Part shown: positions 3,436 through 59,563 of the stretch, piece by piece | How the letters are laid out: each line of letters starts with the position of its first letter | How positions within the stretch are numbered: position 1 is the first letter of the stretch | Assembly (NCBI GenBank): GCA_019748395.1 | Contig: JAIEPM010000047.1 | Span: 15,084 to 79,083 of the forward strand | Reading direction: 5' to 3' | DNA from: Candidatus Obscuribacterales bacterium | Lineage (GTDB): Bacteria > Cyanobacteriota > Vampirovibrionia > Obscuribacterales > Obscuribacteraceae | DNA length: 64,000 bases | Notes under the pieces: model-generated | What the model was told of the DNA's origin: nothing | The model's database searches: none | The model's input: only the letters and a program-made list of their open reading frames with translations | Program-made: the position numbers and the translations under genes

Positions 3436-3888
3436 ATGTGGAAAAATCTGCTCTTAGCTGCTCTTCTAATAGCAAGCTTAACCCCGCTTACCGCTGCCGC
3501 TTACGACTTGACAATGTTGAAAGGTACCTACGTTCAGTTCTCCGATATTGGTGTCCCTTATGTGAAAAAGCTGATTCTGGCGCAAGGTGAACACGGCAAG
3601 GTTAAAGTCAGTGCCGTACTCAGTCATATGCCGAATGAGCAAAGCGTCACCGCAGAAGCCGAGGCCTATATTCAGCGCGATGCAAAACTCATGCAGGATA
3701 AACGAACCGGCGATAGGTTGCTTGTTACCTTTACTACGCCGAAGTTTTCAAATTTCATGGAGATAGACACAGGCAGGCGTGCGGCCGGACAAGAGCCTGA
3801 CTGGGCGACCGTAAATGTTCGCAGCTTTATCAAGCACGCCGATGGTCATAATGAGTATTTCGACGAGGTGCTTGATCGAACCGAATAG
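3436..3888 (+). CDS. Secreted hypothetical protein
   Basis: 150-aa ORF with AAGGGA upstream of the ATG. Classic Sec signal peptide MWKNLLLAALLIASLTPLTAAAYD. Confidence 0.6.
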   Translation: MWKNLLLAALLIASLTPLTAAAYDLTMLKGTYVQFSDIGVPYVKKLILAQGEHGKVKVSAVLSHMPNEQSVTAEAEAYIQRDAKLMQDKRTGDRLLVTFTTPKFSNFMEIDTGRRAAGQEPDWATVNVRSFIKHADGHNEYFDEVLDRTE

Positions 3889-5872
3889 ATTGTGCCGCGG
3901 AGTAGGATAATTTTTTGCCTGTGCTGAGCGACTCTTTTGGTTTGCTAATTATTTCACCCAGTGTTTTCATAAGCTCGGGATCGTCAATTTTTTCGGACTT
4001 CAAACGCTTTGCATAATCAGCGGCTACAAAATCTGCATTGGGTAATTTGCCTGCGTCGGCAAGACGCCGAATTACGCCCGCATAGTACTTTCTAACGGGG
4101 TTCGAGCTTCTTAGATAATCACCTTGCACAGCGTATTGGTGGTCGGCTTCCATTTTGTCATATCCGGATAAAGCCAGAACATACCTTGCCATAGCTATTT
4201 CCTTTCGATGTCTTAGCTTAAGATCACCATTCAATAATTTCTCGTTCAATTCGGCTGCTTGATTTAGCAGTTCCGATGTGGCGGAAATGCGGCCCCACTC
4301 AAAACACTGTGCCCCATGTTGCAATAGTCTTTTTGTCAGGTTCTCTAAGGGGGTATCCGAACTGTCGAGTGTGCTTATTAATTTCTCCAAGATTTGTTTG
4401 TGTCTGTTTGCTGCTTGCTTGTCGTCCAGAGCAGCGTCGAGAGCAAGCAGTCGGCAGAGGTGATAACTTTCACCACCAAGATGTTTTAGCAGACTGAGTT
4501 CGTAACTGACATAGGCCTCTTCTAAGAGTTTTCTAGCACGTAGGAGCTCTTTGTTTATTTCTTCATCTTTTAAGTCAACGCATCTGGCACATAGTAATTC
4601 GGCCAGCTCTCCTTTGACCGATGCCGTGATTCCAGGATTTTGTTTGTGTTTGGCTAAGAGTAGCAAAGCCTTCTCCAGGCTGAGTCTGGCGCCGTCCTGA
4701 TTATTTTCCTCAATTTGCAAACGAGACAATAAGCGGTAGTACTTAATTTGCTGTTCTGCTTGCTCATTTTTAATTCTATTGTCGAGCTGCATTAGGGATT
4801 TCTTGAGCTGAGTGAAGTCTTCCTTTCGCGCAGCCTGTTCTGCCGTGTAAATGACATTTTTCACGTAGTTGTTATTGAGCTTTTCAACTTTAGCGCCGTC
4901 GTTTTTGTCTTGCAGTTTGAAAAGACAAGTCGAAATCAGGACGCTTGCAGCTATAAGCACTAGGCCGGTTCTTTTTGAAATCGATTTTGCGTTGGCTTCC
5001 TTTGCTGAGCGGAATGCGATTTTTTCATTGTTCTCTACTGCTTCCAGAGCGGCGTCAAAATCGAGCATCGTTTGAAAGCGATTCTTCGCGTACTTGCTCA
5101 TGCCGATTTTTACGACCTCGCTCAGGGCTTTGTTTTTTTCGGAGCTTTCCAATTTCCTCAGTATCGGTGTCGCTTCCTCGTGCGTATGCATGCGCAGTAT
5201 AGCGATTGGCGAATCGGCTTTGAATGGTGGCTCTCCTGTCAGCATAAAGTAGAGTAAGCAGCTAAGTGAGTATATGTCGGAGCGCTCATCTGCTTTGTCT
5301 CCCCGGCATTGTTCAGGGCTCATATATAACGGGCTGCCCATTAAAGTGCCGGTGTTTGTGAGTTTCTGATCGCTGCTTTGAATTGAACTGAGCCCAAAAT
5401 CCATGACTTTTATTTGATTCTTCTCGCAGAGCATGATGTTTGCCGGTCCGAGATCTCTGTGAATTACTCCGGCTTTGTGAGCCACGCTCATGGACTGGCA
5501 GATTTGTCTTGCTATATCTATTGCCTTTTGAGCTTCGAATTTTCCGGCGCTTTGAACAGCCGAAAGCAAGGTGGAACCGGAGACCAATTCCATGACAAAG
5601 AATGGTAGATTTGCCTGATTAGCACTTTGAGGACAGTTTCCAAACTGATAAAAGGACGGTATGGAAATGTGCTCCAGTCCTGAGAGTATTTTTGCTTCGC
5701 GCTGAAAGCGAGCCATTGCATCTGGATCTACCGAGTTGCGAAGTACCTTTATTGCAACATCGCGGTCTAAATCAATTTGCCGGGCAAGATAAACTGTGCC
5801 CATGCCGCCTTCGCCGAGAACTTTGACGATGCGGTATTTGTTTAGCAGAATGTCGCCTGGGCTAAGCATCAT
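3830..5872 (-). CDS. Hanks-type Ser/Thr protein kinase with TM helix and large helical-repeat (TPR-like) extracytoplasmic domain
   Basis: Kinase motifs are present: GEGGMGTVYLA, AIKVL, HRDLGPANIM, DFGLS, SPEQ. A hydrophobic helix (LVLIAASVLISTCLF) follows at about residue 305, then about 360 aa of helical repeats. Confidence 0.9.
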   Translation of the reverse strand: MMLSPGDILLNKYRIVKVLGEGGMGTVYLARQIDLDRDVAIKVLRNSVDPDAMARFQREAKILSGLEHISIPSFYQFGNCPQSANQANLPFFVMELVSGSTLLSAVQSAGKFEAQKAIDIARQICQSMSVAHKAGVIHRDLGPANIMLCEKNQIKVMDFGLSSIQSSDQKLTNTGTLMGSPLYMSPEQCRGDKADERSDIYSLSCLLYFMLTGEPPFKADSPIAILRMHTHEEATPILRKLESSEKNKALSEVVKIGMSKYAKNRFQTMLDFDAALEAVENNEKIAFRSAKEANAKSISKRTGLVLIAASVLISTCLFKLQDKNDGAKVEKLNNNYVKNVIYTAEQAARKEDFTQLKKSLMQLDNRIKNEQAEQQIKYYRLLSRLQIEENNQDGARLSLEKALLLLAKHKQNPGITASVKGELAELLCARCVDLKDEEINKELLRARKLLEEAYVSYELSLLKHLGGESYHLCRLLALDAALDDKQAANRHKQILEKLISTLDSSDTPLENLTKRLLQHGAQCFEWGRISATSELLNQAAELNEKLLNGDLKLRHRKEIAMARYVLALSGYDKMEADHQYAVQGDYLRSSNPVRKYYAGVIRRLADAGKLPNADFVAADYAKRLKSEKIDDPELMKTLGEIISKPKESLSTGKKLSYSAAQSIRFDQAPRRNTHYDHRRA

Positions 5873-26556: not shown

Positions 26557-27642
26557 ATGATGAGCACGCAGGGCACACTGCAAAACCGATATCGTATTGA
26601 AAGTGTCCTCGGCCAGGGCGGCATGGGCACTGTTTACCTGGCCAAGGACATCAGGCTCGACGAGCGGCTTTGTGTTGTAAAGGAGCTGCGTGACGATTTT
26701 TATCGCGATGAAGACAAGCAGCGGGCTTTGAGTTTTTTCGACCGAGAGGCGCGCATGCTTGCGCGTTTGAAGCACGGCAGCATCGTCCAGGTCAGCGACT
26801 ATTTTAGTGAACAGGGTAAGTATTTCCTGGTCATGGAATATGTGGAAGGTGAAAATCTCCACAGCATCATGCAAAAACGCGAAGGCGAGGCATTTGATGA
26901 AAAGCAGGTTGTCAGTTGGGCGATTGAAATTTGTGATGTACTGAGTTACCTGCACGCTCAGGACCCGCCGGTTATTTATCGGGACCTCAAACCGAGCAAT
27001 ATCATGATCAGCTCAGGCGGTCAGTTGAAGCTTGTTGATTTCGGTATCGCCAGAAAAATTGAAGCCGACGACGAAAATACCCGGGTTGTTTCTGCCGGTT
27101 ATTCTCCACCCGAGCAGTATTGGGGTGCGGCTAATATTCAATCGGATCTTTACGCGCTGGGTGCCACCATGTTTTTCCTCTTAACAGGAAAAGACCCGGA
27201 GCCTTTGAAAATAAACTCTCCTTGCGAGCATAACTCCGAAGTTTCCGAATATCTGGATTCGGTTGTGCAAAAATGCATGGCGCAAGAAACTGCTCAGCGC
27301 TACTCAAGCGCCCGAGAACTTCGCGAAGCGCTTTTATATGATGATTATGAGGAAGAGCCGGACAATCCGAAAGGCTGGTTTACTCGAAATGTGGCTGCGG
27401 TGATTTTCATCGTGGCGGTGGCACTGGTATTTATTGGTTGGGAACCAATCGTAAACAGCTTCAAGTCCGATCCCAAGCCTGCAAAAGTAAATGCTCCGCT
27501 GGGGTCAAGCGAGAAAGCCGTGGACGATCCTACTTATTCAGATCCGCTTCTGGGCGGCGTAGCACCACAGAAGGGCTTTGCTTTGCAAGTCACTGACGAA
27601 GCCAGTCTGACCGATCTGGAAGCAAGGCCGAAGCAAAAATAG
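26557..27642 (+). CDS. Hanks-type Ser/Thr protein kinase with one TM helix and short Pro/Ser-rich external tail
   Basis: Kinase motifs GQGGMGTVYLA, VVKEL, YRDLKPSNIM, DFGIA, SPPEQ. TM helix VAAVIFIVAVALVFIGW. Confidence 0.9.
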   Translation: MMSTQGTLQNRYRIESVLGQGGMGTVYLAKDIRLDERLCVVKELRDDFYRDEDKQRALSFFDREARMLARLKHGSIVQVSDYFSEQGKYFLVMEYVEGENLHSIMQKREGEAFDEKQVVSWAIEICDVLSYLHAQDPPVIYRDLKPSNIMISSGGQLKLVDFGIARKIEADDENTRVVSAGYSPPEQYWGAANIQSDLYALGATMFFLLTGKDPEPLKINSPCEHNSEVSEYLDSVVQKCMAQETAQRYSSARELREALLYDDYEEEPDNPKGWFTRNVAAVIFIVAVALVFIGWEPIVNSFKSDPKPAKVNAPLGSSEKAVDDPTYSDPLLGGVAPQKGFALQVTDEASLTDLEARPKQK

Positions 27643-27676: not shown

Positions 27677-28540
27677 TCAGTGAATTATGCCTGATGCGGC
27701 CAGTGCAATAATGCTTGCTCCGAATACAAGTCTGTAGATCACAAACACAAGCGTCGAGTGCTTGTTCAGGAACTTGAGCATCCACCAGATCGCTAAATAA
27801 CTGACGATAGTTGAAACTATTAAACCGACGATCAAGCTGCTCATCGCCGTGCCTTCCAGCCCGTGTTCGGTCATATGTTTTAATTCCATCAAACCGCTCA
27901 AAACAATAGCCGGTATGCCGAGCAAAAAGCTGAAGCGGGCAGCTTCGTCGCGCTTGAAACCAAGAAACAATGCGGCTGTCAGTGTGGAACCGCTGCGTGA
28001 GCAACCCGGAATTAGAGCCATTGCTTGACCAAGACCAACTATCAAGCCGTCTTTGCCTGCAACTTCATTTATGCCTTTTGCATGCTTGGCTATCTTTTCA
28101 GCCAGGAGCAAAAGCAAGCCCATAAAAATAGAAGCGCCACCGATTACATTCAGCGAGCGCAATGGGCTGTCGTCCGCTTCAAGAGTGGATTTTAGGAGCA
28201 GTCCCAGAACACAAATGGGAATTGTGCCGACAATAATTGAACCTAATAAACGAAGATCCTGACTTGAATAATCTTTGTTTTTGAGTGCGGCTAAGGAGCC
28301 TGTGGCGATTTGCAGCAGGTCTTTAAAGAAATAGCTGAGAACCGCAAGCACCGAACCAAGCTGAATAACTGCTGAATAAGCCACTCCCGGATCATTGAAA
28401 CTTGGATCTGCTAAATGCAAGATTGTCGGCACGACGCGCAAATGGGCCGAACTGCTAATCGGCAAGAACTCCGTTGCGCCTTGAACTATTCCCAGAATTA
28501 CAGCTTCTAATAAAGGTATGCCGGTGCTGCTTGTCATCAT
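27677..28540 (-). CDS. uppP: Undecaprenyl-diphosphate phosphatase
   Basis: Motifs EFLPISSSAHL and PGCSRSGSTLT, in a polytopic membrane protein. Its start overlaps the upstream PilZ gene stop by 4 nt (ATGA). Confidence 0.9.
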   Translation of the reverse strand: MMTSSTGIPLLEAVILGIVQGATEFLPISSSAHLRVVPTILHLADPSFNDPGVAYSAVIQLGSVLAVLSYFFKDLLQIATGSLAALKNKDYSSQDLRLLGSIIVGTIPICVLGLLLKSTLEADDSPLRSLNVIGGASIFMGLLLLLAEKIAKHAKGINEVAGKDGLIVGLGQAMALIPGCSRSGSTLTAALFLGFKRDEAARFSFLLGIPAIVLSGLMELKHMTEHGLEGTAMSSLIVGLIVSTIVSYLAIWWMLKFLNKHSTLVFVIYRLVFGASIIALAASGIIH

Positions 28541-29439
28541 TCTTCGCTCTCTTCGGTTTGTGTATTCAGTCCTGTTTCGCCCGTTTTTTCAATCGATGAG
28601 TCTTCGGGCTTTTGTTCAATGAGATCATCAATATTTACACTTATGTATTTAGCCTTTGATTCACTAGCTTGCTTTTCAGCTTGCTCAGCTGCCTTGCTGT
28701 CTGAGGCGCTCTCTTTTTGTTCTCCTTTTACAAAGCGAGTTTGATCTTTTCCGGCTTTTACCCAGCGAGCAAGCGAGCCTGAGTCTGTTAGTTCTGCTCT
28801 TGTTTCGGGAATGGCTTTATTGCCGAGCCAGGTCAAAATGCGTTCCAGATTTTTTGTTGATTCTAGATCCATATCAATGAATTCCGCGCCGACTTCGGTT
28901 CGATTCAAGAGCCAGTTGAAACGGCTGTTAACTACGCGGATTTTTGCATGCAGCGGAATGCTGCCGATGTAAATGGTCAGCATGATCTGACTATCTATGC
29001 TGAATTCTTGATGGCATTGGTTGGGAAGCGAGAAACCCAGACCCAATCTGGAAATATTGCGAGTCATGGCTTTCAGTCTGTAGTTTCGCCACTCATCCCC
29101 GAGAATTTCCATTGGAGCGCTTATTTCGGATCTTGCTTGTGAGCGTTTTTGCTGTGTTTGTTCAAACTTTGGTGTTCGGCATTCGAATACGTTGATGCCG
29201 TTTAGAATACGGTTGCCCTTTATTTCGGAAGTCCATAAGCCGTTAAATCTGTTTGCTGCAGTTCCTGTGACAAACCAGATTTTTGCGCCGACCGGCAGAT
29301 TCAGTTTGTTGCCTTTACTGCTGCGAAGCTGAACATATATACGATTGGGCTCTACAGCGACGACTGTAGCTCTTCCGAAACCAATCAAGTCCGGGGACAA
29401 CTCAAGCTTGACTTTGTAGACCTGTCCTTCTTTAAACAT
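28537..29439 (-). CDS. PilZ-domain protein (YcgR-like two-barrel layout) with acidic C-terminal tail
   Basis: c-di-GMP binding motifs are present: RxxxR (RSQAR) and (D/N)xSxxG (NISRLG). It lies between rsmI and uppP on the same strand. Confidence 0.7.
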   Translation of the reverse strand: MFKEGQVYKVKLELSPDLIGFGRATVVAVEPNRIYVQLRSSKGNKLNLPVGAKIWFVTGTAANRFNGLWTSEIKGNRILNGINVFECRTPKFEQTQQKRSQARSEISAPMEILGDEWRNYRLKAMTRNISRLGLGFSLPNQCHQEFSIDSQIMLTIYIGSIPLHAKIRVVNSRFNWLLNRTEVGAEFIDMDLESTKNLERILTWLGNKAIPETRAELTDSGSLARWVKAGKDQTRFVKGEQKESASDSKAAEQAEKQASESKAKYISVNIDDLIEQKPEDSSIEKTGETGLNTQTEESEE

Positions 29440-30463: not shown

Positions 30464-30606
30464 TTTAATAGGGCAACTGAGTGCGATCTACTTGCGCTGA
30501 AATCGATCTATCTGTAACTGCTGCCTGCAAATGAATAGTGGTTCTCGTTTTTGTTTGATTGCTGTAAGATGGGCTGATTAAGCCAAACTTGAGTCAGCGA
30601 AACCCC

Positions 30607-32766
30607 ATGCGCAAGTCGGACAAAGCTAAATCGCTCAAAAGAAGAATTGCCGATTTTCGCTTGACTGCGGCTTCCGTAATACTCGGTAACCTGCCTCATA
30701 TCTCCCACGGCACAAGGGATATGCGTCATATTAGCCATATGGCAGAACTATGCGAGCAATATAGCTTGCTTATAGTTTTAAATTGGATAGCCACCAAATA
30801 TGGTTTTCCTGTATGTGCCGAGTCTATATCGTCGGCCTCGACGCAAAATGCTTTGCCTTTGCTTAGTTGGCCTTCACTAGCCGATCGATATCCTCTGCAA
30901 GTCTACGGAGATCCTCGTGAGCTTGTCCGTACATTTGAAGAGCTCAAAACTCTTCTTGAGCAGTTGTTTGAAGCGAATTTCGAGCTTGTGGGCAGTATTT
31001 ATCAGCAGATGCTTTCTGCTCCTCTTGCCATCAAAAATGATGCCATTCCCTATATCGATCTCAAATCCGATCAGCGACTAAGTGGTGAGTTTTATACACC
31101 GGATTGGGTCGCTGATTATGCATTCGAGCAGTGGCTTAACGCTGATTCAGCTGCTTTATTGTCGCGCTTTAAGGAGCAAGATCCATCTCTATATCCGAAG
31201 ATTATCGACCCGTCCTGCGGCAGCGGTAACTTTTTGCATGCAGCATTGAGGCTCAGTTCTCGCCTGGAAATCTCTGCTCAGTCAAGAATTGAATTTCTGG
31301 CTAACGCTCTATATGGACGGGATATAGATGGAAGAGCCGTTCAACTGACGAAGCTTTGCTTATTGATCGCCGTTGGCGGAGAGCTTAACCGGTCGGCCGA
31401 AAAAGAAATCGAGACTTCGATAAACAGGCTCATCAAAACTCTCGATCGCAATATTCTTGTTGATGACAGTCTGCTTGCTGCAATTTCAGAAGGCGAGCAA
31501 GAAAAGTTCGATCTGGTAATTACAAACCCTCCATATATAAGTTTTGGTTCCAGAGATCAGCAAAATATCGGGGCTGTCTGGCAAAAGCTGTTGAAAAGGC
31601 GATTTCCTGCCTCAAGCGAATACAAAATCAGGTTTACATCGATTTTTCAGGAAATCGCCATAGACTGGAGCCGCCTTTCGGGGCGGTTTAGATCAGAGAG
31701 GCGCGGACAGGCAATTTTGCTTGTGCCCGATGCTTTCTTGAGCGGTCGCTACTACGAAAAACTGCGAAATTTGCTGCTTGAGAAAGTAAATTTGGAAGCT
31801 TTCACTGAACTGCCGGAAAGCACCATATCTGATGCCACTGTCGGTCGCTGGTGTCTGGCTCATTACAGTGAAAAGCCTGTCGACGATTCTGTTGACGAAA
31901 AACTGAAGCAGGTGAAGCTCTCTTCCATAGCCAGTCAGGAAGAGCTGAATAGCAGGCTGACATTTACATTGCCGAAAGTTTCTCTGGTCAGCACAGATCG
32001 GCAGCGCTTTCAATTGCTTTTTTCCGAAGCAGATCTTGAAATTTTTGAGTATTGCCGAAAGCTGCCCTGGCTGAAGTCGAAGCTGCAAGGTCATACAGGA
32101 ATTCGGGCCCGGCGCGGGCAGTCCTCTATAATTGCCGAGCATAAAAAAAATGAGCAGTGCTTTGCCGGTATCATATCCGGTGCCGAGCTTGCGCCTTACA
32201 GAATTGATTGGCAGGGAAAATGGCTTGAGATAGTTCCGGAGAATCTTTATGCCGGTGGATTTGCGGCAGAGACAATTAATGGTCCGAAAATTCTGCTCAG
32301 GCAAACCGCTGATTCTTTAATTGCGGCAGTAGATCAGTCCGGGCTCTATCATTTGAATAATGTTCATAGCTTCGTGCCGCTTTCCGGAAAGCTCAGAGAA
32401 TCTCGAACTTATTTTTTCTGTGCTCTTTTGAACTCGGCTTTCTATAGATACTTTTACCGGTTGAAAACAAGAGAGTACAAACGAGCTCTTGCTCAGGTCG
32501 ATATTGAAACTGTTGAGCACATGCCGCTGGCGCCTGAGAATGCTGCGCTTGAAGGCGAGCTTGAAGAGCTGGGCAGGAAGTTGCACTTGTTTCCCAGGAA
32601 GCATGATTTGTTTGAACAAATTGAAAGACTGGTTTTTGAACTTTTCGGATTTTCCGAGTCGATGCGCCTGCATATCATGAAGGACAGTCACACGGCAGCA
32701 TCAGGCCGGCGCCCGGCAGCCGGATGCTTCAGCCAAGTTCAGGAAATCGGCGGGCAATGGCGTTAA
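30607..32766 (+). CDS. N6-adenine DNA methyltransferase, gamma-class (Eco57I/TaqI-like) with TaqI-C-like target-recognition region; no nuclease recognised
   Basis: Motifs GEFYTPDWVADY, DPSCGSGNFL (motif I) and DLVITNPPYISFG (motif IV, NPPY). The C-terminal part includes LYHLNNVHSFVP...ALLNSAFYRYFYRLK. The start is uncertain: TTG at 30589, first ATG at 30607, further ATGs downstream. Confidence 0.85.
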   Translation: MRKSDKAKSLKRRIADFRLTAASVILGNLPHISHGTRDMRHISHMAELCEQYSLLIVLNWIATKYGFPVCAESISSASTQNALPLLSWPSLADRYPLQVYGDPRELVRTFEELKTLLEQLFEANFELVGSIYQQMLSAPLAIKNDAIPYIDLKSDQRLSGEFYTPDWVADYAFEQWLNADSAALLSRFKEQDPSLYPKIIDPSCGSGNFLHAALRLSSRLEISAQSRIEFLANALYGRDIDGRAVQLTKLCLLIAVGGELNRSAEKEIETSINRLIKTLDRNILVDDSLLAAISEGEQEKFDLVITNPPYISFGSRDQQNIGAVWQKLLKRRFPASSEYKIRFTSIFQEIAIDWSRLSGRFRSERRGQAILLVPDAFLSGRYYEKLRNLLLEKVNLEAFTELPESTISDATVGRWCLAHYSEKPVDDSVDEKLKQVKLSSIASQEELNSRLTFTLPKVSLVSTDRQRFQLLFSEADLEIFEYCRKLPWLKSKLQGHTGIRARRGQSSIIAEHKKNEQCFAGIISGAELAPYRIDWQGKWLEIVPENLYAGGFAAETINGPKILLRQTADSLIAAVDQSGLYHLNNVHSFVPLSGKLRESRTYFFCALLNSAFYRYFYRLKTREYKRALAQVDIETVEHMPLAPENAALEGELEELGRKLHLFPRKHDLFEQIERLVFELFGFSESMRLHIMKDSHTAASGRRPAAGCFSQVQEIGGQWR

Positions 32767-35480: not shown

Positions 35481-35657
35481 GTTATCTAGCTGCTTCGGGT
35501 TGCTCTTGATAGCCGCTAAGCCCGGCTGCAAGCGAGAATTGCTGCTGCTGCCTTCTCTAGTTTACAAAAGAGCCCGCTGGAAAAGCGGCTCCCCGTCGCT
35601 GTGCTATCATTATCATTCGTTATTTTCATATTCATAAATCGATGGGAATTCCTAGCC

Positions 35658-35927
35658 GTGCCTAGAATCAAATCCGCTATTAAAAGAGTCGATGTCGCAG
35701 AACGCAACCGTGAACGCAATCGCTCCTGGAAATCAAGTATCCGTACAGTCCGCAACAACGTCGAAGACGCTGCTGAAGGACCGGACGCCGCCGCCTCCGC
35801 TGAAGCGCTGAAAGAAGCTTATTCAGTGATTGATCGCGCTGTTTCCAAGGGTGTTCTGCACAAAAACACGGCTGCTCGCCGCAAAGCCAGGCTCGTTAAG
35901 TTCGTTCGCAAAGCTAAAGGTTCCTAG
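35658..35927 (+). CDS. rpsT: 30S ribosomal protein S20
   Basis: (V->M)PRIKSAIKRVDVAERNRERNRSWKSSIRT...GVLHKNTAARRKARL is the S20 signature. I place the start at the GTG at 35658, which is in frame with the longer track ORF (35601). Confidence 0.9.
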   Translation: MPRIKSAIKRVDVAERNRERNRSWKSSIRTVRNNVEDAAEGPDAAASAEALKEAYSVIDRAVSKGVLHKNTAARRKARLVKFVRKAKGS

Positions 35928-36050
35928 TTCAGGAAATTTGGCCTGCATTTAACGGCTCTTTTGCAATAAAAAACTCTGCCCGGGTTATGCTGTCGGCAGG
36001 GTCAGATTCTGGCGAGGAAACGAAATTTGGAACTCAACACTTCCCGGACC

Positions 36051-37499
36051 ATGGACACTGTGCAGAGCTCCTCGACTCAGGCTGGAACAGAGTCCGGGAA
36101 AGAATCGCTCAGTCGGCTTGCAGGTCCGGTTCATTTTGTAGGTGTGGGCGGCATAGGCATGTCGGCGCTCGCCAGGTTATTGCTGGCTGAGGGTATCGAA
36201 GTATCGGGCTCGGATAAAGCTGCAAGCCCTATTACAGAAGAGCTTCAGGCTTTAGGCGCTGAGATTTTTATAGGTCATAAGGCTGAAAACGTAGCCAGGG
36301 CGGAGTCGCTGGTTTTGTCTACGGCAATCAGCAGTGAAAATCCTGAATTGAAACTGGCAAAAGAGAGAAATTTGCCTGTTTACCATCGCTCCGAGATTTT
36401 GCGCTATCTTGCTGAGAAAAAGAAAGCGATTGCCGTTTCCGGTACGCACGGCAAAACTACCACCACCGGCATGATTGCTCAAATGATGCTTGCTGCAGGC
36501 TATGACCCATCAGTAGTGGTCGGCGGCGTATTTGCCTACATGAACTCGAATGCTCATGCAGGCAAAGGAGAGTTTTTCGTGGCGGAGGCTGACGAAAGCG
36601 ACAGAAGCCATGCGCAACTGTCTTCGCAAATCGCTGTCGTCACCAATATCGAAGCAGACCACATGGAAAACTATCCAGGCGGCATGGAGCAGATTCTTGT
36701 TACCATGGCCAGTTTCGCCAATCGAGCCAGGCAATGTATTGTTCTTTGTAAGGATGATCCGGGCTGCATGCAGCTCTTGCCTTTGCTCGAAAAGAAAGTC
36801 GTAAGCTACGGGCAAGCTGAAGATGCTGACTATTCGATGAAGCTTGATGCAGACGGTTTGCAATTTCAGGTTTTCAAAAAAGGCAATTTGCTTGGTCCTG
36901 TCGAAATGAAAGTGCCGGGCTTGCATAATAAAATGAATGCGCTGGCTTCGATTGCAGTTTGCATGGAGTCGGGCATGAGTTTTGCACAGGCGGCCGAGGC
37001 TATATCTGCGTTCAAAGGAGTCGCCCGGCGCTTTGAACATATCGGTGAAAGCCACGGTGTGCTGGTGGTTGATGATTACGGGCACCACCCCACAGAAGTG
37101 AAAGCAACTCTTGAGGCTGCCAGGCAGTTCAAGAAAAACAGCGGACGCAAGGGGCGTACAGTGGCGGTGTTCCAGCCTCACCAGCCTGGACGCTTGCGCG
37201 ATTTATGGAATGAGTTTTGTCTGGCTTTTGAAAATGCCGACCTTGTGTTGCTGGCGGATATTTATGTGGCTCGCGGCGGTCAAATTGAAGGCATTAGTTC
37301 TGAACGCTTTTGCCGGGAACTGAATCACAAGAATGCGCATTATCTCTGCGGAGCAACAAAAGAGCTGCCCGCAAAAATTAAAGCCCACCTCTTAAACGGC
37401 GACCTTGTTTTGACAATCGGCGCCGGCGATATTACTTCTGTAGGTAAACCGCTTCTAGAACTGATTGAGAATGAAGGATTAGATGGAAGAATCGACTGA
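36051..37499 (+). CDS. murC: UDP-N-acetylmuramate--L-alanine ligase
   Basis: Motifs VHFVGVGGIGMSALA, SGTHGKTTTT, DESD and DDYGHHP. I prefer the ATG at 36051; the track ORF begins at a TTG at 36027. Confidence 0.9.
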   Translation: MDTVQSSSTQAGTESGKESLSRLAGPVHFVGVGGIGMSALARLLLAEGIEVSGSDKAASPITEELQALGAEIFIGHKAENVARAESLVLSTAISSENPELKLAKERNLPVYHRSEILRYLAEKKKAIAVSGTHGKTTTTGMIAQMMLAAGYDPSVVVGGVFAYMNSNAHAGKGEFFVAEADESDRSHAQLSSQIAVVTNIEADHMENYPGGMEQILVTMASFANRARQCIVLCKDDPGCMQLLPLLEKKVVSYGQAEDADYSMKLDADGLQFQVFKKGNLLGPVEMKVPGLHNKMNALASIAVCMESGMSFAQAAEAISAFKGVARRFEHIGESHGVLVVDDYGHHPTEVKATLEAARQFKKNSGRKGRTVAVFQPHQPGRLRDLWNEFCLAFENADLVLLADIYVARGGQIEGISSERFCRELNHKNAHYLCGATKELPAKIKAHLLNGDLVLTIGAGDITSVGKPLLELIENEGLDGRID

Positions 37500-38391
37500 T
37501 ACTCCCCTCTGGCGTTTTAGCACGATGAAACTGGGCGGTGAGGCAAGGCGCCTCTGCCAACCTCAATCCGCTGATGAACTGATCGGCTTAATCGAACAGC
37601 TTAAGCGTAACTCCGAGCCCTGGTTCATTTTAGGTGGCGGCTCCAACACTCTGGTTTCATCGGAGGGCGTGAACGGCACTGTTATTCGTATGACGCAAAT
37701 GACCAGACTGGCAACTCCTGAACCTGAGTTGCTGATTGCCGATGCCGGAGCAAGATTACCTCATCTGGCAAAGTACGCTGCCGGACTCGGACTTTCAGGG
37801 CTTGAATTTGCCGTCGGCATTCCTGGCACCGTGGGTGGTGCGGTCGTAATGAACGCCGGCGCTCATGGCAGCTGTATGGCAAACGTGGTGGAATCGGCTA
37901 CCGTGCTCGATTGCCGTAGCGGCAAAATAACAGAAATGAACAATGCCGATTTGCAATTTGTTTATCGCAATTCTGCAATTGACCCAAATACGCAAGTTGT
38001 TCTCTCTGCCAGGCTCAGGCTGAAGCCAGGTCCTGAAGAGGAAATTAAGAAGATCACCCAGCACAATGAAGAATATCGCTGGCGGACGCAGCCCCTCGGT
38101 TGGCCCAATCTGGGCAGCACTTTCAAAAATCCTTCAGCCGATAAATCTGCCGGACTTTTGCTTGATCAATCCGGTGCCAAGCAGTTCAAGGAAGGAAATG
38201 CGGCAGTTTCAGCCATACACGCGAATTTTGTAATTAATCTCGGTGGCGCCTCCAGCACCGAAGTGCTTCGACTCTTGCGCCGAATGCAAGAAGTCGTTTT
38301 TGAAAAACATGGATTGCACTTGCATCCTGAATGGAAAACCCTGGGCAATTTCTCTGAAAATCTCGCCGATATCTGGAATGGTGAATCATGA
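37483..38391 (+). CDS. murB: UDP-N-acetylenolpyruvoylglucosamine reductase
   Basis: MKLGGEA..., ILGGGSNTLV, GLEFAVGIPGTVGGAVVMNAGAHG and STFKNP. It overlaps the murC 3' end by 17 nt. Confidence 0.9.
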   Translation: MEESTDTPLWRFSTMKLGGEARRLCQPQSADELIGLIEQLKRNSEPWFILGGGSNTLVSSEGVNGTVIRMTQMTRLATPEPELLIADAGARLPHLAKYAAGLGLSGLEFAVGIPGTVGGAVVMNAGAHGSCMANVVESATVLDCRSGKITEMNNADLQFVYRNSAIDPNTQVVLSARLRLKPGPEEEIKKITQHNEEYRWRTQPLGWPNLGSTFKNPSADKSAGLLLDQSGAKQFKEGNAAVSAIHANFVINLGGASSTEVLRLLRRMQEVVFEKHGLHLHPEWKTLGNFSENLADIWNGES

Positions 38392-39368
38392 AAACAGCAC
38401 AGAACATCAACAAAAAGACTAAAGTAGGAGTTCTATGTGGCGGACTTTCCAATGAAAGGGAAGTCTCCCTGCGCTCCGGCAACAATTGTTTGAATGCGTT
38501 GAAGCGCCTTGGATACGAAAACGCCGAGTTAATTGATGTCGGCAAAGACGTATCTCAGGTATTGCAATCGAAAGGTATCGAAGTCGCTTTTATGGCCCTG
38601 CATGGTCGTTATGGTGAAGACGGCGCTATGCAAGGCGTGCTGGAATTGCTTGCTATTCCGTATACCGGCTCAGGCGTTCTTTCCAGTGCGGTGGCAATGA
38701 GCAAGCCGCTTACTAAGAAGCTGCTTTCCGCCAACAATATTTCATCGGCTCCGACCATCGTAATTACGGAAAGAGAACGAGCTCAAATTGACCAGATTCT
38801 TGCGGGCATAGATTGGCTGCCTGCCATGGTAAAACCACTGAACGAAGGGTCTTCCGTGGGCGTGCACAAAGTTACCGAGAAGTCCGAGATCAAAAAACTG
38901 GTTCTGGAAACGCTTGATCAGTTTGGTGGAGTTTTACTTGAAAAATTCATCAGTGGTCAGGAAATTACAGTCGGAGTTCTGGAAGAAAGACCGGAGAATC
39001 GCAACGGTAAAGATATATGGGCTCTGCCGATTCTGGAATTGCGTCCCAAATCAAAAGCCGGATTCTATGATTACGAAGCCAAATATACCAAAGGCATGAC
39101 CGAGTTTATTTTACCTGCCGAGCTTTCCAAGGAACTGAGCAAAAGCTGTCAGGAAACTGCAGTCGCCACATTTAAAGCGCTCAATTGCAGCGGCTATGCA
39201 CGGGTCGACATGATTGTCGGCAGTGACGGGCAAGCCTATGTTCTTGAAGTGAATACTTTGCCCGGAATGACCGACACTTCCGATTTGCCTGCAATGGCGC
39301 AGGAAGCAGGTATCGATTACGATCAGCTGGTTGAACGTATTTTGATGAGTGCCGGTTTGGACAAATAA
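38388..39368 (+). CDS. ddl: D-alanine--D-alanine ligase
   Basis: Motifs ALHGRYGEDGAMQGVLE, VKPLNEGSSVGV and EVNTLPGMT. ATGA start/stop overlap with murB. Confidence 0.9.
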   Translation: MKTAQNINKKTKVGVLCGGLSNEREVSLRSGNNCLNALKRLGYENAELIDVGKDVSQVLQSKGIEVAFMALHGRYGEDGAMQGVLELLAIPYTGSGVLSSAVAMSKPLTKKLLSANNISSAPTIVITERERAQIDQILAGIDWLPAMVKPLNEGSSVGVHKVTEKSEIKKLVLETLDQFGGVLLEKFISGQEITVGVLEERPENRNGKDIWALPILELRPKSKAGFYDYEAKYTKGMTEFILPAELSKELSKSCQETAVATFKALNCSGYARVDMIVGSDGQAYVLEVNTLPGMTDTSDLPAMAQEAGIDYDQLVERILMSAGLDK

Positions 39369-40485: not shown

Positions 40486-41565
40486 TTAATCCAGCTTGCG
40501 CCCGGTGAGGTTGCCAAGCCATTGCCGAATTTTTGCCACAAGAGTGTTGCCACCAGTTTCGGTATCATCAAATTCGTTTAGTCGACCTTTGCTGTCTTTG
40601 CTCGGTTTGGCGGCTTTGAGATTCATATTTCGGAAGCGCGCAGATTGAAGGGCTTCCTGTTTTCTCTCTTCCAGCTCCAGCTCAGCATCTTCATCAATGC
40701 CGAGTTCCGGAATTTCGAACTCTGGATGGATGCTTTTGTATATTTTGAAGAGTTCGAATTGTACTGCTCTGGCGGATGGTGGTCTTTCATCCTTTTCGTG
40801 CGATGTGCACCTTGTAATCAAGGAATCGAGAGCCGGGAGAACATTTGGATTCAAGTGCATCGGCTTGCAAGGTGTAAGCGGTTTCGGTCTGACGCCCGTG
40901 AGCAAGTGGTGCATGGTGGCACCGAGAGAGTAGAGGTCGCCCCTTGGCTCCGGTTGACCGAAGTATTGTTCGGGAGGAGAGTAGCCTGAAGTAATAACTC
41001 TGGTTGCAGGTCCCTTCGGCTCGAAATCTCGGGCAATACCGAAATCAACAAAGACTACGAGTCCGTCCGGCCGGAGCATGAGATTGCTTGGTTTTAGATC
41101 TCTATAAATGATTGGAGGTTTTTCGCTGTGCAGATATTCAAGCACGTCGCAGCACTGAATCCCGATGCGAACTACTGTTTCAGAATCCAGCGAGCCTTCC
41201 TTTTGCACGACTTCTTCCAGGTTGCTGCCGGGGATATATTCCATCACTACATAGAGACCTTCCTCAGAATAGTGGTCATCCAGAAATTTGACTATGCCGC
41301 GATGATTCAGCTTGCGAAGTAGCTCGGCCTCTCGCTGGCAGATTTTGATCATTTCAATTTGAGCGTTGAGATCTTTCTTTTCGTTCAGGATTTTCTTGAC
41401 AACGCATTGTCTGTCGTCGTGCAGCGTATCTTCAGCAAGATAAACCTCACCCATGCCTCCTCCTCCGAGAGGCTGAATGAAGTTGAAGCGGTCGATCCAG
41501 TTTTCGCTTTGCTCGTGCATTTTGTACTTTATCTGTAGCCTGGATTCAGCAATAGAATCCAACAA
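40486..41565 (-). CDS. Hanks-type Ser/Thr protein kinase, soluble (no TM helix)
   Basis: Kinase motifs GGGGMGEVYLA, VVKKI, YRDLKPSNLM, DFGIA, SPPEQ. The C-terminal tail is charged. The start is either the TTG at 41565 or the ATG at 41520. Confidence 0.85.
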   Translation of the reverse strand: MLDSIAESRLQIKYKMHEQSENWIDRFNFIQPLGGGGMGEVYLAEDTLHDDRQCVVKKILNEKKDLNAQIEMIKICQREAELLRKLNHRGIVKFLDDHYSEEGLYVVMEYIPGSNLEEVVQKEGSLDSETVVRIGIQCCDVLEYLHSEKPPIIYRDLKPSNLMLRPDGLVVFVDFGIARDFEPKGPATRVITSGYSPPEQYFGQPEPRGDLYSLGATMHHLLTGVRPKPLTPCKPMHLNPNVLPALDSLITRCTSHEKDERPPSARAVQFELFKIYKSIHPEFEIPELGIDEDAELELEERKQEALQSARFRNMNLKAAKPSKDSKGRLNEFDDTETGGNTLVAKIRQWLGNLTGRKLD

Positions 41566-41652: not shown

Positions 41653-41681
41653 TTGACATACGAATGTATGGGTGCTATGTT
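41653..41681 (+). promoter_or_regulatory. Sigma70-like promoter candidate for ssb
   Basis: TTGACA (41653-41658), a 17-nt spacer, then TATGTT (41676-41681), about 90 nt upstream of the ssb ATG. Confidence 0.35.
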
Positions 41682-41770
41682 TTAAACATCTCCCCAACGT
41701 ATTAACAACTAAGAAACAGCTCGAGCGGCGGGTCCTACTGCTCGTTGAGTTTTTGTCGGAGGATTTTTTT

Positions 41771-42256
41771 ATGAGCATGGTAAACGTATCACTCGTTGGG
41801 AATCTGGTTCGTGCTCCCGAGCAAATCTGTTTTGCCAGCGGGCGTGTGAAGACTGTTCTGGTAATTGCTGTCAATTCTCAGAGCCACAAATCCGCCGACA
41901 AGCCAAGTGAGCCGCTTGCAGATTTCTACAGAATTGAAACCTGGGGAAAGCTGGCAGAGCTGGCGCAAAAATATCTGAACAAAGGTAACCAGGTCGGAGT
42001 AAGCGGCAGGTTGATCATGGAGCACTGGACTGATAAACAGGGGCGGGAAAGACTCACACCGGTCGTCTCGGCTACTCAATTGTCTTTTCCTCCGCGCAAC
42101 AATCGGGAGTCTGACTCAGCTTCGGCAGAAAACTCTGCGTCAAAAACAGATTATGAAGACGACGATCTTTTTGCCGGAGCCAGAGCCGTCACGGTTGCCG
42201 AAGCACCGGCTCACTATTATCGCAGTCGATTGAAAAGCGCATCGGCACGTCGCTGA
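41771..42256 (+). CDS. ssb: Single-stranded DNA-binding protein with a non-canonical basic C-terminal extension
   Basis: GGAGG lies 7 nt upstream of the ATG at 41771. The OB-fold start is MSMVNVSLVGNLVRAPE...FYRIETWGKLAE...VGVSGRL. The acidic tip EDDDLF (42155-42172) is followed by 27 more residues. Confidence 0.85.
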   Translation: MSMVNVSLVGNLVRAPEQICFASGRVKTVLVIAVNSQSHKSADKPSEPLADFYRIETWGKLAELAQKYLNKGNQVGVSGRLIMEHWTDKQGRERLTPVVSATQLSFPPRNNRESDSASAENSASKTDYEDDDLFAGARAVTVAEAPAHYYRSRLKSASARR

Positions 42257-42658
42257 ATTGACTTTCAAAGTTTTTGATTTTGAGCCCTGGCGATGATGCT
42301 GAGCTTCGCCTGTGCTCAAACACTTCAAATTTTTTCCCAGCTATGAAAGGAGCAAATAGAATGATTGAGCCATTGCTAAAAGGAATCAATGCTCTGAGCT
42401 GTCCTATATCCGGACTGCCACCCTAAGGGCTTTGTAATTGTTTTTCTTTCGCTCCTCGCGAATTGACCAGGTGCCGGAAATTTTCAATTCCGGGCATAAG
42501 CATGCTCTGTATTTTCACCAATAAATTCCGGTATGCCTGAGTCTTCGCCCAAATTTAGAACTCCTATTTGTCCTGTCCCGCAGTCAGCAAAAGTTCCATT
42601 CAGGAAATCCAAATTGCAATCTCTGGCTTTGCGGGTCAGGGCTCATGGAGTTTTTCAA

Positions 42659-43972
42659 TCAGAATCTTTGTGAGAAAGCAAATGTCGCCTGGTGATCCCA
42701 GTAAGTTACCTGTTTGTCTTGCCAGCGTATAAAGCGAACACCGCCGTCTTGTGAAATTACAATTGCCAGCGTTTCTCTTAGCTCATGGCACATGTCGTAA
42801 GCCGAGCGGTGTCTGGTGCCTACCCCTCTTGTTGATTCAAGTTTGAATCTTTTCCCCTCAAGGTCAAGTGCTCTGGCCACGGTCGAGACATTCGCCAGGT
42901 CACAGCGAATTTCCGCACCAAATCCCAGGAGTTCAAAGCGGCGTGTCATCACAACTGCGCCATCCACTGTCGATAGTGCTGCAATTAAATGCGACATTTC
43001 AAAAATCGCTTCATCGAGAGCGCTTACTCTTGGGTCTCCTGAATCTTGATAATCTTGCCAGCTAATTTGATGTTTTTCTTTTTGCGCATTTTCGGCAAGA
43101 GTGTTCATCATCGAAACAATGAGTGTGCGAAAGCGTGCTCTAGGTTCATCTTGCACGAATTTGTATCTAAGATTGATATAGCGGTTCGAAGCTGTCAGCT
43201 CCGGAGCAAGAGCCGGCGGGACCATGATCAATGTGCCACCATGTCTGAATGCTCGAATTGCCGCAAGTACCCTTTTCACCATATGTTGATCGATCAAATG
43301 GGTTAATTCAGGATCAAGAGTCGCCCAGTCTGCATCTGCATGTTCCTTGGCTTGATTATGTAGCTCTGTTCTTTCGGCTCTAGTTTCGGCAAAAAGCTCT
43401 TGCAGCCATACTGAATGAAAAACATTGGTGGATGGTCCAAACACACGACCTTCGCTTAATTGTCCTACCGTAACCGAGCCCTTGCAGACTTCGATGCATC
43501 CCGGGCCTGTGACATTTATTACTAAAGTGGAAGGCAGTTTTGGTGCTGAGCCTTTGCCTCCAAGCTGAGTATGCAGCCAGCGTGTTCCGGAGTGAACGAT
43601 TCCCCAGATTTGAGGTCCGCTATTTCCGTCAAGTCTGATTCCCAATAATGAACGATAAAAATTGGCTGCATGAACCAGAGATTTCAATTCTTGGGGCACG
43701 CAAGGAACGTATTCGTCGAAAATAAGTCGATGCAATCCCAGCGGTGGTCCATCATCTGCCGGGAAACTTTCCGGTTCGCACAGTACCATTCTGAACATCA
43801 AAGGGCGTTCTTCTTCTCGCAATAAACTTGCTTGATAGGCTGTGGATATAAGCGCTTCAAGCATAGGCAGTCCCGGCAGTTCACTTTCTTCCGCGTCTCC
43901 GTTTGAAACTTCAAGCCAGTGTTCATGAACGAAGGCTGCTAATTGCTGGGGATATCCATGATTAGTCCACAT
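42659..43972 (-). CDS. Diadenylate-cyclase-fold (DisA_N/DAC) protein with about 220-aa N-terminal uncharacterised (DACNV-like?) sensor region
   Basis: AGAGGA lies 9 nt upstream of the ATG. The C-terminal half contains FRHGGTLIMVPP, STVDGAVVMTRRFELLGFGAEI (DGA motif) and GVGTRHRSAYDMCHELRETLAIVISQDGGVRFI (RHR motif plus SE-etG-like strand). No TM helices. Confidence 0.75.
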   Translation of the reverse strand: MWTNHGYPQQLAAFVHEHWLEVSNGDAEESELPGLPMLEALISTAYQASLLREEERPLMFRMVLCEPESFPADDGPPLGLHRLIFDEYVPCVPQELKSLVHAANFYRSLLGIRLDGNSGPQIWGIVHSGTRWLHTQLGGKGSAPKLPSTLVINVTGPGCIEVCKGSVTVGQLSEGRVFGPSTNVFHSVWLQELFAETRAERTELHNQAKEHADADWATLDPELTHLIDQHMVKRVLAAIRAFRHGGTLIMVPPALAPELTASNRYINLRYKFVQDEPRARFRTLIVSMMNTLAENAQKEKHQISWQDYQDSGDPRVSALDEAIFEMSHLIAALSTVDGAVVMTRRFELLGFGAEIRCDLANVSTVARALDLEGKRFKLESTRGVGTRHRSAYDMCHELRETLAIVISQDGGVRFIRWQDKQVTYWDHQATFAFSQRF

Positions 43973-58051: not shown

Positions 58052-59371
58052 TTAGCCCGGTATACGGAACAGGTTGTTTCCGAAATGCAGAATAAATCCG
58101 GCCATGGAAAAGTAAATCACTAATCCTGTGACGTCAACAAGTGTCGCCACAAATGGCGCTGAAGCGCTGGCTGGATCTAAACCCAGCTTTCTTAAAATGA
58201 AAGGCAGCATAGAGCCTGAAATGCCTCCCCAGAGGACTATACAGATAAGACTGAGTGCAACAGTCGCGGCTATGAGAATGTAATGAGGTCCGTAAGCTTG
58301 CGGGAAGATTTGCTGCCATGCAAGAATGCGAATCAAGCCGATTGCTCCGATTATTAGCCCAAGTGCCAGTCCGACCATGAGCTCTCGGCGGAAAACTTTC
58401 CACCAATCTTTCAAGTCGACCTGTCCAAGAGCCATTGCGCGAACCACAAGCGTACTTGCCTGCGAGCCTGAGTTGCCTCCGCTGCTAATAATGAGAGGTA
58501 TAAAAACTGCCAGAACGACAGCTTTTGCTATTTCGCTCTGATACTGAGCCATTGCGTTTGTAGTGAGCATTTCACTCAAGAAAAGAAGTACCAGCCAACC
58601 GGCACGCTTCTTGATCATGTCCAACAAGCTTATTTCAAGATAAGGAGCATGCAAAGCTTCCGAACCACCGATTTTTTGGATATCTTCAGTTGCCTCTTCC
58701 TGTACCACGTCCACGATGTCATCGATGGTGACTATGCCTTTCATTTTTCCCTGGCTGTCTACAACCGGTATGGCAAGAAGGTCATGCTCTGCGAATAGTC
58801 GGCTCAATTCCTCTTGATCCATCTCTTCTCTTGCTCTGACGAAATCATGTTTCATGACGCTTTTAATAGGAGCTTCGGGCGGTGCAGCAAACAGTTCTCT
58901 CAGTGAGGAGACACCGATCAGACATTCTTGAGCGTTTACGATGTAAACGTAGTAAACCGTTTCCACGTGCTCACGAGCCTGACGTCTCAAATAAGCAAGT
59001 GCCTGCGCTACAGTCATGTTTGCGCGCAGAGTGGCGAAGCGGGGGCTCATCAGACCGCCTGCAACGTCTTCTCGATAAGCGAGCAATCCCGTAACTTCAT
59101 TGTGGGTGGACGGATCTAGGCAACTGAGCAGCGCCTGTCTGCTTTCAATCGGCGCCTCTTGTATGGCGTCGGCTGCGTCATCAGGTTCAAGAGCGCGCAT
59201 CCAGAAGAAGCGTTGATCGACGGGCATTGAAAGAAGCAAATGCGCCTGATCTCGGCTGCTCAATTCCCAGAAAAACTGCTGCGATTGCTCGCTCGGCATC
59301 TTGCGAAACTGCTCAAGTTGTTCGTTTTGCTGGAGTTCGCTCCAGATTTTATTGATATTCGTGTGGAGCAT
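58052..59371 (-). CDS. mgtE: Magnesium transporter MgtE
   Basis: AAGGAG lies upstream of the ATG at 59371. MgtE N-domain, then a CBS pair (HDLLAIPVVDSQGKMKGIVTIDDIVDV), then a TM domain with SSGGNSGSQAST. The track ORF extends to 59524 through an unlikely Cys/Arg/Phe-rich leader. Confidence 0.9.
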   Translation of the reverse strand: MLHTNINKIWSELQQNEQLEQFRKMPSEQSQQFFWELSSRDQAHLLLSMPVDQRFFWMRALEPDDAADAIQEAPIESRQALLSCLDPSTHNEVTGLLAYREDVAGGLMSPRFATLRANMTVAQALAYLRRQAREHVETVYYVYIVNAQECLIGVSSLRELFAAPPEAPIKSVMKHDFVRAREEMDQEELSRLFAEHDLLAIPVVDSQGKMKGIVTIDDIVDVVQEEATEDIQKIGGSEALHAPYLEISLLDMIKKRAGWLVLLFLSEMLTTNAMAQYQSEIAKAVVLAVFIPLIISSGGNSGSQASTLVVRAMALGQVDLKDWWKVFRRELMVGLALGLIIGAIGLIRILAWQQIFPQAYGPHYILIAATVALSLICIVLWGGISGSMLPFILRKLGLDPASASAPFVATLVDVTGLVIYFSMAGFILHFGNNLFRIPG

Positions 59372-59563
59372 GTTTTGTACTCCTTGGTCAAATATTTGGG
59401 CTCTGAAAAGACAGCTTGAACTCTGGAGACGTAGTTTTCGCCAAAGTGATTCCTGAATTCGGAAAAATCGACAAAAAAAAGACAAGCAACGGACGACTCT
59501 TGGACAGTTCATCGCTAAATTCAATTTAGGCCTGAGTGAAAGGACGGACTGGAGGTTAGTGAA

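Follow-up and report, generated by a model that had tools for sequence, protein, structure and literature searches.

The locus described here raises two questions: whether a reading frame that carries diadenylate cyclase (DAC) motifs encodes a true DAC fold with its catalytic residues in place, and what the large region in front of that fold contributes. The gene lies in a 64,000-nt stretch of DNA from Candidatus Obscuribacterales bacterium (contig JAIEPM010000047.1, positions 15,084 to 79,083), which we call the window and whose numbering is used throughout. An earlier reading of the letters, the original prediction, had placed a DAC-fold protein with an N-terminal sensor region at 42659-43972. 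A reading frame of 437 amino acids was indeed found there on the minus strand, with every quoted motif present. It starts with ATG, a Shine-Dalgarno-like AAGAGGA lies upstream, and the N-terminus of the protein, MWTNHGYPQQL, is in register with the starts of its homologs in the alignment. The features of the gene are as follows, the N-terminal half coming first.

42659..43972, minus strand: complete coding sequence of a predicted DACNV-type diadenylate cyclase, 437 aa (from the list of open reading frames; aligned end to end with more than 2,293 homologs)
43331..43972, minus strand: putative N-terminal regulatory module, residues 1-214, an alpha/beta domain and a long connecting helix, 188-213 (AlphaFold2 models)
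43592..43888, minus strand: Pfam DACNV match, residues 29-127, from helix 35-49 to strand 119-127 (hmmscan)
42683..43330, minus strand: divergent DAC (DisA_N) catalytic domain, residues 215-430 (Foldseek against the PDB, hhalign, PDB profile search, sub-threshold PF02457)
43034..43159, minus strand: family-specific two-helix insertion between beta2 and alpha3, residues 272-313 (AlphaFold2 helices 276-295 and 305-310)
42956..42964, minus strand: DGA catalytic motif, D337-G338-A339, preceded by V336 (translated coordinates; alignment of 52 homologs)
42821..42907, minus strand: beta-hairpin extension in the beta4-alpha4 loop, residues 356-384 (AlphaFold2 strands 364-368 and 376-380)
42800..42820, minus strand: GxRHRxA motif, G385-T-R-H-R-S-A391 (translated coordinates; aligned to GTRHR of CdaA and DisA)
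42746..42754, minus strand: S407-Q408-D409, counterpart of the end of the CdaA 'VVSEE' nucleotide- and metal-binding strand (aligned to VVSEE/VSxx of CdaA and DisA)

The family of the protein was assigned with hmmscan. Residues 29-127 matched the Pfam model DACNV (PF21751, 'probable sensor domain DACNV') with 90.7 bits, the gathering score being 27 (E=6.8e-26), and the match spans profile positions 3-98 of 98. The guess that the protein belongs to a DACNV-, DACNG- or DACNH-type family was thus right. The same comparison, which had been suggested for DisA_N as well, fell short there: the Pfam model DAC/DisA_N (PF02457) reached 21.2 bits, under its cut-off of 27, and covered only profile positions 65-111 of 119. 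A phmmer search of the PDB sequences with the full protein gave no match, and NCBIfam returned nothing relevant, its DacZ model scoring only 11.2 bits against a cut-off of 430. In every respect open to testing, the protein is a member of the DACNV-DAC family (PF21751 plus PF02457). Query coverage is 96-100% for most of the 120 homologs listed (P0001-P0120), only about half of which have a precomputed PF02457 match. They include Obscuribacterales entries called 'diadenylate cyclase' and a Gloeobacter morelensis protein, P0079, named as DACNV-containing and 50% identical across 99% of its length. NCBI annotation thus already carries the name 'putative sensor domain DACNV-containing protein', as well as 'diadenylate cyclase', among the homologs. 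The family has been catalogued in a census of DAC domain architectures (Galperin, 2023, J Bacteriol 205:e0002323), as cited in PMC12901056. The term 'DACNV' itself was not met in the searchable literature, and no experimental DACNV work was found there, in agreement with the claim that such fusions are experimentally uncharacterised.

The C-terminal ~215 residues form a DAC fold with a complete catalytic signature (DGA, GxRHRxA and S-Q-[D/E]). An AlphaFold2 model of the full-length protein, built from the homolog alignment, had a mean predicted local distance difference test score (pLDDT) of 87.9 and a predicted TM-score (pTM) of 0.80. When this model was compared with the PDB using Foldseek, the first 47 places were all taken by CdaA, DisA or DacM, with a best E-value of 1.5e-3 (8ohf_B, CdaA) and probabilities of 0.97-1.00 for the first 46. 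The target-normalised TM-score was about 0.5 for CdaA and DacM and 0.24-0.41 for the longer chains of DisA; the high root-mean-square deviation (rmsd) of the matches is due to insertions. The matched CdaA/DacA chains are from B. subtilis, L. monocytogenes, S. pneumoniae and S. aureus, the DisA chains from M. tuberculosis, M. smegmatis and T. maritima, and DacM from M. ovipneumoniae. Superposition on CdaA or DisA had been proposed as a check on the catalytic pocket; the comparison of folds came out in favour of a DAC. Identity to the solved DACs is only 9-15% in the Foldseek alignments.

Profile comparison gave the same picture at the level of sequence. Against a small canonical DAC profile, made from DisA and CdaA sequences of verified identity that were taken from PDB alignments, the profile of the C-terminal half reached 91.8% probability and E=7.3e-7 in hhalign, with DGAVV placed on DGAVV and GTRHRSA on GTRHRSA. 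In this alignment 'RARFRTLIV', which lies inside the insert, was paired with the canonical GALIV strand, where HGGTLIMV is expected; we regard the pairing as a local misalignment because AlphaFold2 makes 276-295 a helix and 246-251 a strand. Searched against PDB sequences, the C-terminal half found DAC chains only, weakly (E 0.036-0.43) and over the GTRHR...VVS segment only.

A long insertion had been said to split the fold. This is the case: the 42-residue two-helix insert is present in all homologs, with a central loop of varying length, and the 29-residue hairpin is a second extension, the least conserved stretch of the DAC half (mean column identity 0.58). The insert and the hairpin together explain the weak Pfam DAC score.

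The motifs HGGTLIMV (residues 244-251), VDGAVVM, GTRHRSA and LAIVISQDGGVRFI, all quoted in the original prediction, could each be verified and given nucleotide coordinates; S407-Q408-D409 sits within the last of them. In an alignment of 52 homologs with 49-80% identity, D337, G338, F351, G385, R387, H388, S407 and Q408 are invariant, A339 is found in 51 of the 52, and T386, R389, S390 and A391 are near-invariant. Position 409 is D in 46 sequences and E in the other 6. Proper alignment therefore leaves the catalytic residues in place, with DGA, GxRHRxA and S-Q-[D/E] essentially invariant. DGA and GxRHRxA are the defining signature of DACs; in the numbering of L. interrogans CdaA, activity depends on D172 and R203, while S222 is predicted to take part in ATP binding (PMC12974146). 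Judged by sequence, nothing seems to be missing from the catalytic machinery. In CdaA-type enzymes a His, linked to the use of Mn or Co, comes right before DGA, and the Mg-dependent DisA is without it (PMC12974146). In the 48 sequences counted, this position (336) is occupied by V, A, C or S and in no case by His, and because of this the metal site may be DisA-like, so that the enzyme might use Mg rather than Mn or Co; this is a weak indication.

A DAC that is intact in sequence might still not be a synthase of cyclic di-AMP (c-di-AMP). It could bind nucleotides as a sensor or scaffold, or its product could be a different one, for instance linear pApA or a mixed dinucleotide, because the insert and hairpin peculiar to the family would alter the geometry of pairing. 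The divergence of the domain, which is under the Pfam cut-off and distant from all solved DACs, speaks for this, as do the 42-residue insert and 29-residue hairpin, which canonical DACs lack, and the lack of biochemical data for the DACNV family in the searchable literature. Against it, none of the residues that catalysis is known to require varies across phyla, which is the pattern of an active enzyme and not of a binding-only pseudoenzyme. We also know of no DAC-domain protein that makes a product other than c-di-AMP, which weighs in the same direction. We therefore hold a non-synthase to be improbable.

We consider it likely, from the sequence, the models and the analogy with known DACs, that the protein is a stand-alone DACNV-class diadenylate cyclase of the cytoplasm, soluble and with its synthesis of c-di-AMP gated by its N-terminal module. 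Several points weigh against this explanation. The Pfam DAC model stays below its own cut-off for this protein, and sequence similarity to solved DACs is limited to ~35 residues. No DACNV family member with demonstrated activity was found in the searchable literature, the census of Galperin (2023) being outside that search. The 42-residue insert and the hairpin are near the pairing face, and the oligomeric mechanism could differ from that of known DACs. Finally, the regulatory role of the N-terminal module is read from the architecture alone.

The region before the DAC fold had been put at about 220 residues; we find about 214. In the full-length model as well as in a model of residues 1-214 (pLDDT 82.8, pTM 0.75), it forms a single alpha/beta unit composed of helix 35-49, strands 60-64, 81-90, 108-115 and 119-127, helix 131-136, a three-strand meander (150-173) and a long helix, 188-213, which runs into the DAC domain. 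The models suggest that the Pfam DACNV boundary (29-127) captures about half of this 214-residue module. Its mean column identity is 0.64-0.65, compared with 0.66 in the flanks of the catalytic domain.

The distribution of the module was assessed by an exhaustive search of 1.84 billion representative proteins with a profile of the N-terminal half, the matches being clustered at 50% identity. This yielded 1,372 clusters at E<=1e-3, of which 662 were at <=1e-10 and 151 at <=1e-30. The best 150 of the 1,372 comprised complete-looking proteins of ~400-460 aa whose N-terminal part is the module, and the atypical proteins among these 150 showed no other fused Pfam domain. Of the proteins of at least 390 aa, 56 out of 70 have the motifs DGA...GxRHR...SQ[D/E] in this order; 8 of the 14 exceptions were inspected and turned out to be near-miss variants such as ISHDG (5) or visibly frameshifted (3). 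The N-terminal module is thus an obligate partner of the DACNV-type DAC and not a portable sensor domain. The 'sensor region' of the original prediction accordingly stands in so far as it contains the DACNV domain, and falls in so far as a sensor found elsewhere was implied: the module is seen only with this type of DAC. One protein of 627 aa (P0182) has the module at 334-519, after a 330-residue N-terminal extension without a Pfam match; its C-terminus looks frameshifted (rich in Arg, Ser and Pro), and this architecture may be an artefact.

What the module itself might be was addressed by searches against the PDB. The profile of the N-terminal half found no match among PDB sequences at E<=10, and the fold search with the model of the module gave nothing significant, its best match being a DisA chain (3c1y_A, E=0.083). 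This match bears on a different explanation of the module, namely that residues ~30-187 arose long ago by duplication of the DAC fold, are catalytically dead and pair in cis with the live DAC, so that they mimic or block the face-to-face dimer. Such a pseudo-DAC may bind a nucleotide, for example ATP, AMP or c-di-AMP, that acts allosterically or as feedback. The idea had been put forward before the fold search was made, in which T. maritima DisA (3c1y_A) then came out on top of 350,542 PDB chains, with 140 aligned columns and a probability of 0.63, every other match having 0.14 or less. By eye, the order of secondary structure elements in the module resembles that of a DAC, and there are echoes of the motifs: G129-x-R131 at a helix N-cap recalls G385-x-R387, and 'VTGPG' recalls 'ISQDG' at a strand end. 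The constant company of a DAC fits as well.

Most of the comparisons argue the other way. A permutation test of the secondary structure order, which has low power, gave z=0.55, with 123 of 400 shuffles reaching the observed score. The DisA match is the single DAC chain among the fold matches, with TMq 0.28 and an rmsd of 6.6 A, and the DisA domain that it aligns to is not discernible. The N-terminal half profile finds nothing in the PDB, and a Hymenobacter member (30% identity) has lost the SGPRWL/GGRG segment. An internal duplication at the level of sequence was rejected, as hhalign gave 0.7% for the N-terminal against the C-terminal half and 0.13% for the N-terminal half against canonical DACs. 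We therefore think a pseudo-DAC unlikely, though it retains more weight than a non-synthase. If true, it would mean an intramolecular pseudo-dimer in which a dead DAC gates the live one or senses nucleotide for it, a mode of control undescribed for CdaA, DisA, CdaS, CdaM and DacZ; it would refine the explanation as a gated c-di-AMP synthase and would not exclude it.

For the gated synthase the following mechanism can be proposed. In DACs, two DAC domains of different subunits come together face-to-face, each with ATP and a divalent metal, and form c-di-AMP. As established for CdaA, DisA and DacM, the present protein would bring the DAC domains of two subunits together in this way, with one ATP and one divalent cation each. 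Judging by the architecture, the N-terminal module would act through the long helix to control productive pairing of the DAC domains, by autoinhibition or by controlled oligomerisation, and this gating would answer a cytoplasmic cue. Analogies for such control are the action of GlmM or CdaR on CdaA and the autoinhibition of CdaS.

Relatives of the protein are numerous: clustering at 90% leaves more than 2,293 homologs, and at least 440 species-representative genomes, in about ten phyla, encode one. The closest are from Candidatus Obscuribacterales/Melainabacteria, with up to 64% identity among the species-representative genomes; the best public relative is 80% identical. Further ones occur in Gloeobacter, Aphanocapsa lilacina, Oculatellaceae, Rubrobacteraceae, Geobacteraceae/Geomonas and Polyangium, and in Chthoniobacterales/Verrucomicrobia, Binatia, Pyrinomonadales, Chloroflexota and Nitrospiraceae. 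A Hymenobacter member still keeps the catalytic residues at 30% identity over 427 residues. Gloeobacter carries two DACs, CdaA and an 'extremely divergent' second one (PMC5986932). Because of this, and because the G. morelensis homolog is 50% identical to the present protein, the family is probably, by analogy, an accessory, conditionally active source of c-di-AMP beside CdaA in cyanobacteria-related lineages, and not the housekeeping one. In the 64-kb window, no second DAC (cdaA or disA), no recognisable c-di-AMP phosphodiesterase (of DHH/DHHA1, HD/PgpH or AtaC type) and no ydaO riboswitch was found.

Two of the relatives are peculiar in their own right. In Rubrobacterales bin.174, a 101-kb contig (JBBPYN010000015.1) has two DAC copies, one near each end, which run in opposite directions and share the same match statistics (L068, 87341-100648 reversed; L070, 375-13682); the cause is a long inverted duplication of the termini or an artefact of the assembly. 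On plasmid NZ_CP095065.1 of Hymenobacter volaticus (L088, 3989-5231), the homolog is split into two coding sequences of 861 and 276 nt and found as three tblastn pieces; it is probably a decaying pseudogene. The copy on a plasmid of H. monticola (L087) is intact and adjoins a patatin-like phospholipase gene.

The surroundings of the gene were examined in the window and in other genomes. Two further features are concerned here.

41672-42256, convergent with the DAC gene: ssb (Pfam SSB)
42257..42658, no strand: spacer of 402 nt between ssb and the DAC gene, featureless (Rfam, promoter, terminator and open reading frame scans)

The convergence with ssb and the spacer of exactly 402 nt, both pointed out originally, are present here but are not a family trait. 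In relatives of ~80% identity the neighbours are different and the 3' spacers measure 12-58 nt, and for this reason both are local accidents that lie outside the anatomy of the family. The possibility that the spacer is a non-coding RNA, a riboswitch or a small gene was rejected: Rfam gave no match at the gathering score or at E<=1, promoter- and terminator-like sites occur at chance frequency, the open reading frames are short only, and the spacer is not conserved in relatives. Elsewhere, six individually inspected gene contexts had nothing in common, and when 921 open reading frames from 80 loci were clustered, no neighbour family was present in more than 10 loci; what recurred was lineage-specific synteny or generic histidine kinases. 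The DAC gene is thus stand-alone, without a conserved neighbour or operon partner.

The same contexts bear on whether the protein could be a defence-associated DAC, which would signal phage infection like the DAC of system DS-2 that is linked to a cyclic oligonucleotide-based antiphage signalling system (CBASS). The genes of some DAC families lie together with CBASS genes, and one such family is required for defence (PMC13092281); moreover, a type IIG-like methylase gene is located in the window 10 kb from the DAC gene. On the other side, PADLOC found no match, no defence gene (CD-NTase, effector or other) recurs in the 80 loci or adjoins the gene here, no phage homolog was found, and plasmid homologs are two only, on Hymenobacter megaplasmids. 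The genes around the DAC gene are housekeeping ones: ssb, a Ser/Thr kinase gene, murC-murB-ddl and PHO4. A role in defence is effectively refuted by this context, and we give it hardly any credence; the reading as part of a mobile element was rejected as well.

Some other genes of the window deserve mention. The murC-murB-ddl cluster for peptidoglycan precursors (36027-39368, plus strand) is 3 kb from the DAC gene. As c-di-AMP has a part in the homeostasis of the cell wall, a connection is tempting, but this proximity is absent from all other loci examined. In the gap before murC, which is otherwise unannotated, a reading frame of 108 aa (35601-35927, plus strand) ends in '...VIDRAVSKGVLHKNTAARRKARLVKFVRKAKGS' and resembles ribosomal protein S20 (rpsT), by eye only. 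Three Hanks-type Ser/Thr protein kinase genes are found in the 64 kb, at 3830-5872 (minus), 26557-27642 (plus) and 40486-41565 (minus); one of these adjoins ssb and the DAC gene and is not a conserved DAC neighbour in other genomes. A gene for a PilZ-domain protein, a presumed c-di-GMP receptor (27677-28540, minus), overlaps by 4 nt with the start of a gene for BacA/UppP, the undecaprenyl-pyrophosphate phosphatase (28537-29439, minus). The overlap suggests co-transcription, and the pair might tie c-di-GMP sensing to the recycling of the cell-wall lipid carrier. A solitary protein of 725 aa (30589-32766, plus) has Eco57I/N6_Mtase and TaqI_C specificity domains, the architecture of a type IIG/MmeI-like methyltransferase, with no separate nuclease gene evident beside it. 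CBS domains serve as c-di-AMP receptors in some proteins, and the MgtE magnesium transporter of the window (58052-59524, minus) matches MgtE_N and a CBS domain; nothing ties it to the DAC. Genes for TPR proteins are numerous in the window, and three of its proteins have a TonB-C domain; this gene content, with the kinase genes, and the relatives of the DAC protein both fit an Obscuribacterales-like source.

In bacteria, c-di-AMP regulates the homeostasis of potassium and osmolytes and the integrity of the cell wall; in many species it is either essential or toxic. To our knowledge, what is understood of DAC mechanism all comes from five classes, mostly of Firmicutes and Actinobacteria and one archaeon. 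Members of the DACNV class are spread widely over little-studied lineages, such as Obscuribacterales/Melainabacteria, Gloeobacter, Rubrobacter, Geobacter, Polyangium, Verrucomicrobia and Binatia. The present protein is a further member of this catalogued, uncharacterised family and adds no new concept. Three practical points follow nevertheless. First, the regulatory module comprises ~214 residues and not 98, and is exclusive to this DAC. Second, PF02457 at its threshold under-counts the family, and censuses of DACs must use DACNV. Third, there is no operon partner, and the signal must therefore be sought biochemically and not read from the genomic context.

How the protein compares with the known DAC classes can be summarised as follows. 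The original prediction had denied it CdaA-type transmembrane helices, the helix-hairpin-helix (HhH) domain of DisA and CdaS-type helices, and it was correct on all three counts. The maximum 19-residue Kyte-Doolittle hydropathy is 1.39, too low for a transmembrane segment; the peak is in helix 314-333, which is buried, and the AlphaFold2 model is globular. No Pfam match to the DisA linker or HhH was obtained even at E<=10, there was no match to the CdaS domain, and no PYK_C-type domain was found in Pfam or NCBIfam.

With CdaA/DacA the protein has the DAC fold in common, including the best Foldseek E-value, and the GTRHR...VVS segment aligns. It differs in having a soluble N-terminal module instead of three N-terminal transmembrane helices, no His before DGA and no cdaR or glmM neighbours. 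As a transmembrane segment is not predicted, the protein is neither CdaA nor CdaM. DisA likewise has the DAC fold and no His before DGA, is among the best fold matches and gave the top score in the profile comparison. Where our protein has SQD, DisA has a short polar stretch, VSHS or VSRR. The DAC domain is N-terminal in DisA and C-terminal here, the protein ending 7 residues past it; the insert and hairpin are extra, the helical spine and the HhH DNA-binding domain are missing, and no octamer-forming elements are evident. CdaS is similar in concept, being a soluble DAC with an N-terminal extension that controls oligomerisation and activity, and its structure 2fb5 is among the weak sequence matches. 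The extension of CdaS is a short two-helix domain, unlike the 214-residue alpha/beta module found here. For DacZ/CdaZ, the score reported above was obtained with the NCBIfam equivalog NF041371 and lies far under its cut-off. The agreement is with the DACNV-DAC family, which shares the two-part architecture and the conserved motifs and in which most full-length matches are 402-470 aa long, with a few of 483-510 aa. With the named members of this family the protein is collinear across 97-100% of its length, and we see no substantive difference from them.

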